A stretch of DNA of 1,542 nt from assembly GCF_003334335.1 (NCBI RefSeq), contig NZ_QOWQ01000103.1; one strand, 5' to 3'. Shown here piece after piece: positions 1 to 1,542 of the stretch. The stretch is from Escherichia coli. GTDB taxonomy: Bacteria; Pseudomonadota; Gammaproteobacteria; Enterobacterales; Enterobacteriaceae. The notes beneath the pieces were generated by a model. It searched no databases and had not been told where the DNA came from. It saw only the letters and a list, made by a program, of their open reading frames with translations. Made by a program: the position numbers and the translations under genes. The number at the start of each line of letters is the position of its first letter. Position 1 is the first letter of the stretch.

Positions 1-26
1 GTAAGCGTACAGCCTGAACCGTCTGG
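1..26 (+). repeat. Putative left terminal inverted repeat (IRL) of the IS66-family element; inner boundary approximate
   Basis: Sequence gtaagcgtacagcctgaaccgtctgg starts with the GTAA(GCG) motif typical of IS66-family ends. The right end is not in the window, so the IR length and pairing cannot be verified. Confidence 0.5.
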
Positions 27-71
27 TCAGAATCTGACGAATTAGACAAAGTGGTGTCCACCAAATAAGTA

Positions 72-473
72 GTGGGAACCAAAGTGTCAGATATGCAGAA
101 AAATGTGACTCCCGGCAGGCGAAAAGGCTGCCCTAATTATCCTCCCGAATTTAAACAGCAGCTCGTTGCTGCCTCCTGTGAACCCGGGATATCCATCTCA
201 AAACTTGCTCTTGAAAATGGCATTAACGCCAATCTGTTGTTCAAATGGCGACAACAATGGCGCGAGGGAAAGCTGCTATTACCTTCTTCAGAGAGCCCCC
301 AGCTACTTCCTGTGACTCTCGATGCAGCTGCCGAACAGCCAGAATCGCTCGCAGAGGACCCGGAAACCCTCAGTATCAGCTGTGAGGTAACGTTCCGGCA
401 CGGGACGCTCCGCTTCAATGGCAATGTCAGCGAAAAGCTCCTGACTCTGCTGATACAGGAACTGAAGCGATGA
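72..473 (+). CDS. tnpA: IS66-family accessory protein TnpA (Orf1), small helix-turn-helix protein; start ambiguous (GTG at 72 or in-frame ATG at 93)
   Basis: 133-aa ORF from the track. The segment ...PEFKQQLVAASCEPGISISKLALENGINANLLFKWRQQWREG is a typical transposase-associated HTH signature. Stop TGA at 471-473 overlaps the next gene's ATG (ATGA). No strong Shine-Dalgarno sequence precedes either candidate start. Confidence 0.85.
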   Translation: MGTKVSDMQKNVTPGRRKGCPNYPPEFKQQLVAASCEPGISISKLALENGINANLLFKWRQQWREGKLLLPSSESPQLLPVTLDAAAEQPESLAEDPETLSISCEVTFRHGTLRFNGNVSEKLLTLLIQELKR

Positions 474-817
474 TCCCGTTACCTTCCGGGACCAAAATTT
501 GGCTGGTTGCCGGTATCACCGATATGAGAAATGGCTTCAACGGCCTGGCTGCGAAAGTACAAACGGCGCTGAAAGACGATCCCATGTCCGGCCATGTTTT
601 CATTTTCCGGGGCCGCAGCGGCAGTCAGGTTAAACTGCTGTGGTCCACCGGTGACGGACTGTGCCTCCTGACCAAACGGCTGGAGCGTGGGCGCTTCGCC
701 TGGCCGTCAGCCCGTGATGGCAAAGTGTTCCTTACGCAGGCGCAGCTGGCGATGCTGCTGGAAGGTATCGACTGGCGACAGCCCAAGCGGCTGCTGACCT
801 CCCTGACCATGCTGTAA
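470..817 (+). CDS. tnpB: IS66-family Orf2 protein (TnpB of IS66 type; unrelated to the IS200/IS605 TnpB nuclease)
   Basis: 115-aa ORF. The translation MIPLPSGTKIWLVAGITDMRNGFNGLAAKVQ...HVFIFRGRSGSQVKLLWSTGDGLCLLTKRLERGRFAWP matches the highly conserved IS66 Orf2 pattern. ATG at 470-472 overlaps the tnpA stop. Stop TAA at 815-817. Confidence 0.9.
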   Translation: MIPLPSGTKIWLVAGITDMRNGFNGLAAKVQTALKDDPMSGHVFIFRGRSGSQVKLLWSTGDGLCLLTKRLERGRFAWPSARDGKVFLTQAQLAMLLEGIDWRQPKRLLTSLTML

Positions 818-843
818 ATCTCTTTATCCTGGTTGTCACAGAA

Positions 844-867
844 TAAGCCCGGTAAAATACGGGCTTA
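844..867 (+). promoter_or_regulatory. Stem-loop in the tnpB-tnpC intergenic region that includes the first base of the tnpC start codon; possible translational control element
   Basis: Read directly: taagcccg (844-851), loop gtaaaata (852-859), cgggctta (860-867). This is a perfect 8-bp stem. It is not followed by a T-tract, so it does not look like an intrinsic terminator. Confidence 0.4.
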
Positions 868-1542
868 TGAACGACATCTCTTCTGACGACATCTTCCTGC
901 TAAAACAGCGCCTGGCCGAACAGGAAGCGCTGATCCACGCCCTGCAGGAAAAGCTGAGCAACCGGGAGCGCGAAATAGACCATCTGCAGGCGCAGCTGGA
1001 TAAACTCCGCCGGATGAACTTCGGCAGTCGTTCCGAAAAAGTCTCCCGCCGTATCGCACAAATGGAAGCCGATCTGAACCGGCTTCAGAAAGAGAGCGAT
1101 ACGCTGACTGGTAGGGTGTATGACCCGGCAGTACAGCGTCCGTTGCGTCAGACCCGCACCCGTAAGCCGTTCCCTGAATCACTACCCCGTGACGAAAAGC
1201 GACTGTTGCCTGCGGCGCCGTGCTGCCCGAACTGCGGCGGTTCACTGAGCTATCTGGGCGAGGATACCGCCGAACAGCTGGAGTTGATGCGTAGCGCATT
1301 CCGGGTTATCCGGACGGTACGGGAAAAACATGCCTGTACTCAGTGCGATGCCATCGTGCAGGCACCTGCACCTTCGCGGCCCATCGAGCGGGGTATCGCC
1401 GGACCGGGGCTGCTGGCCCGCGTGCTGACCTCGAAGTATGCAGAGCACACCCCGCTGTATTGCCAGTCAGAAATATACGGCCGGCAAGGTGTGGAGCTGA
1501 GCCGTTCACTGCTGTCGGGCTGGGTGGATGCATGCTGCCGGC
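867..1542 (+). CDS. tnpC: IS66-family transposase TnpC (Orf3), N-terminal ~225 codons; 3'-partial, continues beyond the window
   Basis: ATG at 867-869 opens a frame with no stop to the window end; it is absent from the ORF track because it lacks a stop. My translation reads MNDISSDDIFLLKQRLAEQEALIHALQEKLSNREREIDHLQAQLDKLRRMNFGSRSEK...LPAAPCCPNCGG...HACTQCD...YAEHTPLYCQSEIYGRQGVELSRSLLSGWVDACC. This shows a leucine-rich coiled coil followed by a CxxC...CxxC zinc-finger-like motif, as expected for the IS66 TnpC N-terminus. The DDE catalytic domain would lie downstream of the window. Confidence 0.85.
   Translation, partial: MNDISSDDIFLLKQRLAEQEALIHALQEKLSNREREIDHLQAQLDKLRRMNFGSRSEKVSRRIAQMEADLNRLQKESDTLTGRVYDPAVQRPLRQTRTRKPFPESLPRDEKRLLPAAPCCPNCGGSLSYLGEDTAEQLELMRSAFRVIRTVREKHACTQCDAIVQAPAPSRPIERGIAGPGLLARVLTSKYAEHTPLYCQSEIYGRQGVELSRSLLSGWVDACCR

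Follow-up and report, generated by a model that had tools for sequence, protein, structure and literature searches.

TnpB of the IS66-family insertion sequence ISEc8, a highly conserved accessory protein encoded in an overlap with tnpA, and its possible role beside the transposase TnpC

Elements of the IS66 family are among the commonest insertion sequences (IS), and the most conserved protein that they encode, TnpB, stands without an assigned activity. What this protein might do is the question raised by a 1,542-nucleotide (nt) stretch of Escherichia coli DNA (RefSeq assembly GCF_003334335.1, contig NZ_QOWQ01000103.1), referred to as a whole as the window. The window (1-1542) represents the left 1542 bp of the 2442-bp element ISEc8 of the IS66 family, base 1 being base 1 of the IS. 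Its genes lie on one strand in the order tnpA (93-473), tnpB (470-817) and tnpC (from 867), an order that is kept in related loci. The features that bear directly on TnpB are as follows.

470-817, + strand: tnpB (IS66 Orf2); ATG start, TAA at 815-817; 115 amino acids (aa), 12.8 kDa, isoelectric point (pI) 10.6
470-473, + strand: ATGA, in which the start of tnpB and the stop codon of tnpA overlap; translational coupling signal; frame of tnpB -1 with respect to that of tnpA
457-460, + strand: AGGA, possible Shine-Dalgarno sequence of tnpB within the 3' end of tnpA, by direct reading; 9 nt to the ATG
93-473, + strand: tnpA, 126-aa accessory protein; RefSeq start ATG 93, longest open reading frame (ORF) from GTG 72, TGA at 471-473

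The identity of 470-817 as tnpB of ISEc8 is essentially certain. Residues 9-106 of the protein matched profile positions 2-100 of 101 of the Pfam family PF05717 (TnpB_IS66) with an independent E-value of 1.4e-38, and the NCBIfam equivalog NF033819 (IS66_TnpB) was matched over 90/90 profile positions with 120 bits at a cut-off of 50. These were the sole significant families for TnpB in the Pfam and NCBIfam scans. At the amino acid level the protein shows 100% identity to TnpB from the ISEc8 copy annotated in the Stx2-converting phage 1717, with equal length, position and ATGA overlap, and RefSeq labels identical coordinates tnpB in thousands of E. coli genomes. By every test that could be applied, the protein is a member of the IS66 TnpB family. 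An earlier reading of the letters alone, without database searches (the sequence-only reading), had placed IS66 Orf2 (TnpB) of 115 aa at this position and had considered it not novel to this sequence. ORF coordinates, both family profiles and the RefSeq annotation agree with the former statement; as to the latter, the window is a standard ISEc8 copy with nothing unusual about it, and its tnpB is an already known feature.

TnpB is more conserved than the catalytic subunit TnpC, an observation that is new here. Across 45 related elements the median identity to the ISEc8 proteins was 68% for TnpB, 54% for TnpC and 34% for TnpA, and TnpB ranked as the most conserved of the three IS proteins in 45/45 elements, the helix-turn-helix (HTH) protein TnpA being by far the least conserved. 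Comparison of tnpB with two close relatives whose synonymous divergence was unsaturated (dS 0.59-0.71) gave ratios of nonsynonymous to synonymous substitution (dN/dS) of 0.013-0.017; TnpB is under strong purifying selection. The family is also abundant. When 1.84 billion cluster representatives were scanned exhaustively with HMMER, TnpB homologues were found in 13,332 clusters (50% identity) at E <= 1e-3 and in 4,027 at E <= 1e-10.

The tnpA/tnpB overlap was followed through 96 related loci, 80 of them from a scan of species-representative genomes and the rest from E. coli and phage records; the phage records contributed 16 matches, at 29-52% TnpB identity, in contigs of human-gut phages, in Leptospira phages and in a phage of Streptococcus. 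A 4-nt start/stop overlap was present in 75/93 scorable tnpB loci (ATGA in 58, GTGA in 16, TTGA in 1), and in 73 of these 75 a substantial upstream ORF ended precisely at the overlap TGA. The upstream ORF ended 4-14 nt inside tnpB in 13 of the 16 matches with 29-42% TnpB identity, and nine of the ten upstream ORFs of distant loci that were tested exceeded the curated cut-off of an IS66 TnpA model. The overlap between tnpA and tnpB is thus kept across the IS66 family, which is also new here. Overlap between tnpB and tnpC, on the other hand, was seen in 0/63 loci with a tnpC ORF of at least 300 aa located 20-130 nt downstream; the single such overlap belonged to a locus with a truncated 280-aa ORF, and the spacers typically measured 29-90 nt. 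Since the tnpA/tnpB overlap is conserved and tnpB and tnpC are spaced, TnpA and TnpB would form one expression unit and TnpC another, and the arrangement points to tnpA-tnpB as a conserved co-translated unit from which tnpC is separate. In its claims of strong conservation across IS66-family elements and of ATGA coupling to tnpA, the sequence-only reading was if anything too cautious about the former (45/45 elements; dN/dS about 0.015), and the latter holds at 470-473 in the window and, as NTGA, in the 75 loci named above.

The partner in this overlap, TnpA, carries a Pfam HTH_Tnp_1 DNA-binding domain at aa 16-86 (nt 138-350; independent E-value 2.4e-12) and scored 97.4 bits against the NCBIfam model IS66_ISRel24_TnpA, for which the cut-off is 74.

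Before its ATG the tnpB frame (-1 with respect to tnpA) stays open over 26 codons, from nt 392, and contains A-AAG at 434-437, so that an IS3-like frameshift fusion of TnpA and TnpB is formally possible from the open frame 392-470. A programmed -1 frameshift was rejected as unsupported: the database fusions P0118 and P0130 each occur on one metagenome contig beside a truncated tnpC, and they look like indel artefacts. A third TnpA-TnpB fusion ORF, P0070, was not traceable to a record, and the other long TnpB matches were out-of-frame read-through in GC-rich DNA.

The sequence-only reading had proposed structure prediction and a structural-similarity search for the 115-aa product, and both were carried out. 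A first AlphaFold2 (AF2) run on a shallow alignment of 36 sequences with 50-70% identity gave a predicted local distance difference test score (pLDDT) of 70 and was left out of the fold searches. Searches for distant homologues (proteins, genome contigs and tblastn against plasmids) gave solely the closest relatives, of at least 58% identity, and the distant relatives were supplied by a phage collection. Addition of 16 relatives with 27-49% alignment identity yielded a 60-sequence alignment (A2) and a confident model with a mean pLDDT of 88.9 and a predicted template modelling (TM) score of 0.81, the five models ranging from 87.5 to 88.9. TnpB is predicted to be one compact alpha/beta domain with the topology beta1 (10-13), alpha1 (23-32), beta2 (43-47), beta3 (53-60), beta4 (63-70), a long loop, beta5 (85-88) and alpha2 (90-97). 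Residues 98-115 are without regular secondary structure in the model, and pLDDT drops from about residue 101, to a mean of 69 over 101-110 and of 43 over 111-115.

In the 60 TnpB sequences L26, F46, K55, G63 and K69 are invariant, and G15, T17, D18, R20, F44, G48, L66, R70, L71, G74, F76, W78, P79 and G99 are at least 90% conserved. Of the conserved polar residues, T17-D18-x-R20 are placed in the beta1-alpha1 loop, K55 on beta3 and K69-R70 where beta4 ends; D18, R20, K55, K69 and R70 are invariant or near-invariant down to relatives of 29-52% identity, and D18 is the sole near-invariant acidic residue of the protein. TnpB is basic, with a pI of 10.63 and 16 Lys and Arg residues versus 8 Asp and Glu residues; the family median pI is 10.15. 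In the proteobacterial-type group the tail segment E98-G-I-D-W-R-x-P105 shows 91-100% conservation, and model confidence declines over its second half. Such features would suit a docking peptide.

When the fold was compared with known structures, no informative neighbor emerged among the characterized ones. A search of PDB sequences with the single TnpB sequence gave as best matches the MUS81 N-domain (E 0.09) and RIB26 (E 0.77), and the 60-sequence profile run against all PDB sequences returned nothing below E 0.2, the C-terminal domain of HPF (E 0.24) and 2hg6 (E 1.6) coming nearest. MUS81, RIB26, HPF and 2hg6 were all rejected as TnpB homologues, their E-values being at chance level. Foldseek found no match of the model in the PDB at E <= 1e-3; the best match had an E-value of 0.07 and a TM score of 0.37. 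The SH2 domains and ribosome-associated protein Y/HPF that appeared in this search (E 0.07-0.8, TM <= 0.41) were taken as generic alpha/beta-sandwich likeness and rejected as functional evidence. In the 115 residues of TnpB no Walker A motif was found by direct reading, and no nuclease, nucleoside triphosphatase (NTPase) or defense-system family matched TnpB in Pfam, NCBIfam or PADLOC. A link of TnpB to a defense system was rejected, as PADLOC gave no match.

The literature gave little more. Genome papers name IS66 TnpB simply an accessory ORF; the RefSeq product name is 'IS66 family insertion sequence element accessory protein TnpB', and the NCBI note goes no further than 'accessory protein'. 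A full-text literature search on IS66 TnpB, which left most subscription journals outside its coverage, found no paper assigning an activity. The view that the biochemical role of this protein is poorly defined thus agrees with both the searched texts and the NCBI label. The role of the extra ORFs of IS21 and IS66 elements has been called unknown (PMC3281130). Gomez et al. (2014) described strong motifs for binding the beta sliding clamp (consensus Q-L-S-L-F/L) in TnpC and TnpB of IS66a, or in one of the two; the peptides that bound E. coli beta in their work were derived from TnpC (PMC3971601). This prediction of 2014 is the single mechanistic lead for TnpB.

We favor, at slightly less than an even chance, a model in which TnpB is a non-enzymatic, obligatory subunit that is made together with TnpA and helps the DDE transposase TnpC to assemble or become active on DNA. 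Translation of TnpB would be coupled to that of the HTH protein TnpA via the overlapping stop and start codons, and the TnpA-TnpB pair would help TnpC to assemble on, or become active at, the IS ends or target DNA. TnpB would make its contacts through the invariant charged patch formed by T17-D18-x-R20, K55 and K69-R70 and also through the conserved C-terminal tail E98-P105 that is modeled with low confidence. The fast-evolving HTH protein TnpA would be the natural candidate for a reader of element-specific ends. TnpB would instead touch partners that are constant between elements, such as the core of TnpC, DNA in general or a protein of the host; such contacts are the more probable because TnpB evolves more slowly than the catalytic subunit. 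Its high conservation would fit a small protein that is constrained at several interfaces and has no part in reading IS-specific sequence. Han et al. (J Bacteriol, 2001) are said to have found that mutation of tnpA, tnpB or tnpC of IS679 in each case abolishes transposition.

Several points weigh against this model. Gourbeyre et al. reportedly described in 2010 an ISBst12 group of the IS66 family without tnpA and tnpB, which would imply that TnpC-like enzymes can work without these two. The AF2 models cover the TnpB monomer only. The data establish the identity of the gene, the coupling geometry and how widely it is kept, the purifying selection, the rank order of conservation, the predicted fold and the lack of NTPase and known nuclease signatures; the physical partners of TnpB and its assembly role are inferred. 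The fold searches yielded no homologue with a known function to which that role could be anchored. tnpB has a plausible Shine-Dalgarno sequence of its own (AGGA), so that coupling to tnpA need not be strict. Finally, high conservation and a basic pI fit a nucleic-acid reader or a host-factor tether equally well.

The rival explanations overlap with this model and are not mutually exclusive with it. One of them, which we regard as unlikely, holds that TnpB tethers the transpososome to the replisome, Q92-L-A-M-L96 being a beta-clamp-binding motif that would steer the element to replication forks in the manner of TnsE. QLAML stands at 92-96 of ISEc8 TnpB, a partial fit to Q-L-[SD]-L-[FL] with M at the strongly conserved L4 position, and the family consensus is QLSML; in the proteobacterial-type group conservation is 100% for Q92 and 84-95% for L93, M95 and L96. 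The survey of Gomez et al. names TnpB of IS66a among the motif carriers beside TnpC, whose peptides bind E. coli beta, and a contact of TnpB with a host protein that is itself invariant would account for its top rank in conservation among the IS proteins. However, the peptides assayed in the survey came from TnpC only, and QLAML is a candidate for the TnpB motif meant there. Clamp-binding motifs normally occur in flexible, extended peptides (PMC3971601), whereas residues 90-97 form helix alpha2, in sequence blocks with a mean pLDDT of 93 in the AF2 prediction, and thus are not in a flexible, exposed location such as the terminus where these motifs usually lie. Q92 is kept in 44% of the 16 distant relatives, and W is found at 95 in 44%, while the hydrophobic pattern of the helix persists; QLAML thus resembles a structural element more than a linear motif. 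The loose motif arises easily, as is seen from its second occurrence, QVKLL at 53-57 in strand beta3. It is likewise improbable, to our minds, that TnpB is mainly a nucleic-acid reader with a divergent PUA-like fold of the EVE, YTH or ASCH type and not mainly a protein adaptor; the DNA or RNA feature so recognized might be the tnpC mRNA, an end of the IS or a base that is flipped or modified. A PUA-like theme recurred in two structure libraries, and the aromatic and basic residues F44, F46, F76, W78, R20, K55, K69 and R70 are conserved, although a ligand pocket among them is only a candidate. The fold scores were never convincing and lay below the usual significance, Foldseek, a different method, favored other folds, and no sequence-profile relationship was found: Pfam gave PF05717 only, and the PDB profile search gave nothing below E 0.2.

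That TnpB is a negative regulator limiting transposition, like OrfA of the IS3 family, InsA of IS1 or the Tn5 inhibitor, appears to us quite improbable. In IS3 and IS1, small proteins encoded upstream of the transposase are repressors, TnpA weakly resembles the models of the IS2 repressor TnpA and of the IS3 N terminus, and the -1 frame of tnpB with respect to tnpA has its counterpart in orfB and orfA of IS3. Yet the repressor-like HTH domain belongs to TnpA and not to TnpB, and if TnpB were a dispensable brake, one would not expect it to rank first in conservation in every one of the 45 comparisons, with a dN/dS of about 0.015. The tnpB mutants of IS679 are moreover reported by Han et al. to be defective, not hyperactive. 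We give least credence of all to an enzymatic role of TnpB, such as that of a small nuclease acting on the strand left uncut by TnpC, by analogy with TnsA of Tn7. The lone near-invariant acidic residue, D18, is too few for a metal-dependent PD-(D/E)xK, HNH or RuvC site, and a PD-(D/E)xK or other nuclease site was rejected on this ground; Pfam, NCBIfam and PADLOC contributed no nuclease family, and the fold scores were at noise level.

A bolder reading deserves mention, although we doubt it. TnpB_IS66 may be the founding member of an unrecognized, very abundant fold (more than 13,000 clusters at 50% identity, with no significant neighbor among solved structures) that binds nucleic acids or partner proteins, is at most distantly PUA-like, and licenses the IS66 DDE transposase by reading a DNA feature. 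Candidates for this feature are GTAA at the conserved terminus, a base that is distorted or flipped, and DNA of the replication fork, reached via the beta clamp. If true, it would constitute an accessory mechanism unlike that of the AAA+ regulators of IS21, Mu and Tn7. Once the function of TnpB is learned, the parts list of a major transposition system will be complete, and a new kind of transposase co-factor might be revealed. The question is real and long-standing, and this window is no more tractable than other copies; the experimental handles gained are the confident AF2 model, the few residues that are invariant, QLAML as a candidate clamp motif and a TnpA/TnpB expression unit that stands apart from TnpC.

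The remaining features of the window concern its left end, tnpC and the spacer that precedes it.

1-13, + strand: left terminal inverted repeat (IRL), GTAAGCGTACAGC, equal to the reverse complement of the last 13 nt of ISEc8
818-866, + strand: tnpB-tnpC spacer, 49 nt; hairpin 843-851/860-868; -10-like TAAAAT at 853-858
867-1542, + strand: 5' part of tnpC, DDE transposase; 512 aa in full ISEc8, continuing past the end of the window; NCBIfam transpos_IS66 on the fragment, RefSeq
981-1196, + strand: LZ_Tnp_IS66 of tnpC; Pfam, full-length TnpC from L097
1221-1349, + strand: zf-IS66 of tnpC; Pfam, full-length TnpC from L097
from 1389, + strand: DDE_Tnp_IS66 of tnpC begins; Pfam, full-length TnpC from L097

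The full 512-aa TnpC also has the IS66 C-terminal element of Pfam. The window aligned from base 1 to the annotated 2442-bp 'insertion sequence:ISEC8' of phage 1717 (L097), a copy that has 13-bp perfect terminal repeats and an 8-bp duplication, GGTTATCG, on both flanks. An end of the IS66 type (5'-GTAAGCG...) thus opens the window, and the 8-bp target duplication is known from the phage 1717 copy. Sequences 99.9% identical were found in 3970/5426 complete E. coli genomes, at up to 32 places per genome, and ISEc8 is also present on many resistance and virulence plasmids and on Stx phages. The window differs from ISEc8 of phage 1717 at six positions (86, 784, 902, 1298, 1461 and 1502). Two of these differences alter TnpC, at codon 199 (Cys versus Arg) and codon 212 (Ser versus Arg), and the TnpB protein is the same in both despite the six nucleotide differences. 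One E. coli chromosomal copy differs from the window by a single base, at 160. In the chromosomal copy of E. coli WCHEC035148 (L001, 3367-4752), otherwise 99.9% identical, tnpC is annotated with 461 aa versus 512 aa, and this tnpC is probably truncated or inactive. An IS66-type element of the Streptococcus phage phiStag1 (L086, 2495-4327) is without a recognizable tnpA, the upstream ORF being merely 29 aa long, and has the leucine-zipper part of TnpC split off as an ORF of 61 aa, an arrangement that Gomez et al. (2014) report from some Bacilli (PMC3971601). This element looks degenerate.

No Shine-Dalgarno sequence for tnpC was evident in the 49-nt spacer. The spacer hairpin of ISEc8 consists of 9 bp, ATAAGCCCG (843-851) pairing with CGGGCTTAT (860-868), closed by an 8-nt loop, and includes the A and the U of the tnpC AUG. 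Its z-score against shuffled sequences was -3.2, versus a median of -0.67 over 63 related spacers; on this median, a hairpin sequestering the tnpC start as a general regulatory device was rejected as a family feature. A different pattern was observed in 52 non-identical spacers of the proteobacterial type (loci L008-L081). A -10-like TAnnnT ended 6-7 nt before the tnpC ATG in 31 of them, and C occupied position -1 of tnpC in 83%. A -35-like hexamer lay 16-18 nt upstream of TAnnnT in 22/52, versus 0.5 +/- 0.7 in shuffled spacers, a control that overstates independence because the loci are related to each other. Promoter-like examples are TTGTAA-17-TAAACT, TTTGCA-17-TATACT and TTCCCA-17-TATATT; the ISEc8 spacer has a weaker version, TGGTTG-17-TAAAAT, with its -10-like part at 853-858, 8 nt before the ATG, and a match of 7/12. 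A generic promoter scan gave nothing canonical in the window. As far as sequence allows a judgment, this geometry would predict an internal promoter whose transcripts begin with the A of the tnpC ATG or right beside it, and hence a leaderless tnpC mRNA. Alternatively, since the motif can in many elements be read as a pair of GTAAAC repeats similar to the IS end GTAAGC, it may be a transposase-binding or autoregulatory site. A literature search for a leaderless tnpC or an internal promoter in IS66 elements found no paper.

Comparison with known systems sets TnpB apart from several proteins with which it might be grouped. With TnpB of IS200/IS605/IS607, the RuvC-like RNA-guided nuclease and Cas12 ancestor, the likeness is one of name only: IS66 TnpB has no OrfB_IS605 or RuvC match and a length of 115 aa versus about 350-450 aa. 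A homologue in Pseudomonas phage Marin (OR683406.1, H72) is labeled 'transposon-associated endonuclease', apparently through confusion with the unrelated IS200/IS605 TnpB name. A further label, 'transposase', belongs to PHROG 623, a 259-position profile that TnpB matches over positions 127-241. PUA-like readers (EVE, YTH, ASCH and the SRA-like N-domains of McrB/HNH enzymes) have no sequence similarity to TnpB. The likeness to beta-clamp binders such as TnsE of Tn7 lies in QLxML at 92-96, which fits the loose Q-L-S-L-F/L consensus; in TnpB, however, this candidate motif belongs to a helix predicted with confidence, and distant relatives keep it only in part.

In IS21, Mu and Tn7 a second, non-catalytic protein, IstB, MuB and TnsC, respectively, is required alongside the DDE transposase. 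These are AAA+ proteins of about 250 aa or more, whereas TnpB has 115 aa, is without Walker A/B motifs and gave no AAA+ match in Pfam or NCBIfam; TnpB therefore cannot be an ATP-dependent target selector. The arrangement of ISEc8 resembles orfA-orfB of IS3 and IS2 in that the upstream gene encodes an HTH_Tnp_1 protein and the downstream gene overlaps it in the -1 frame. In IS3, however, the downstream frame is the DDE domain, fused by programmed frameshifting, whereas tnpB of ISEc8 encodes a separate 115-aa non-DDE protein from its own start codon. The closest counterparts remain the IS66-family TnpB proteins ('IS66 Orf2-like protein') of ISEc8, IS679 and IS66, with which TnpB of the window agrees in everything that was tested.

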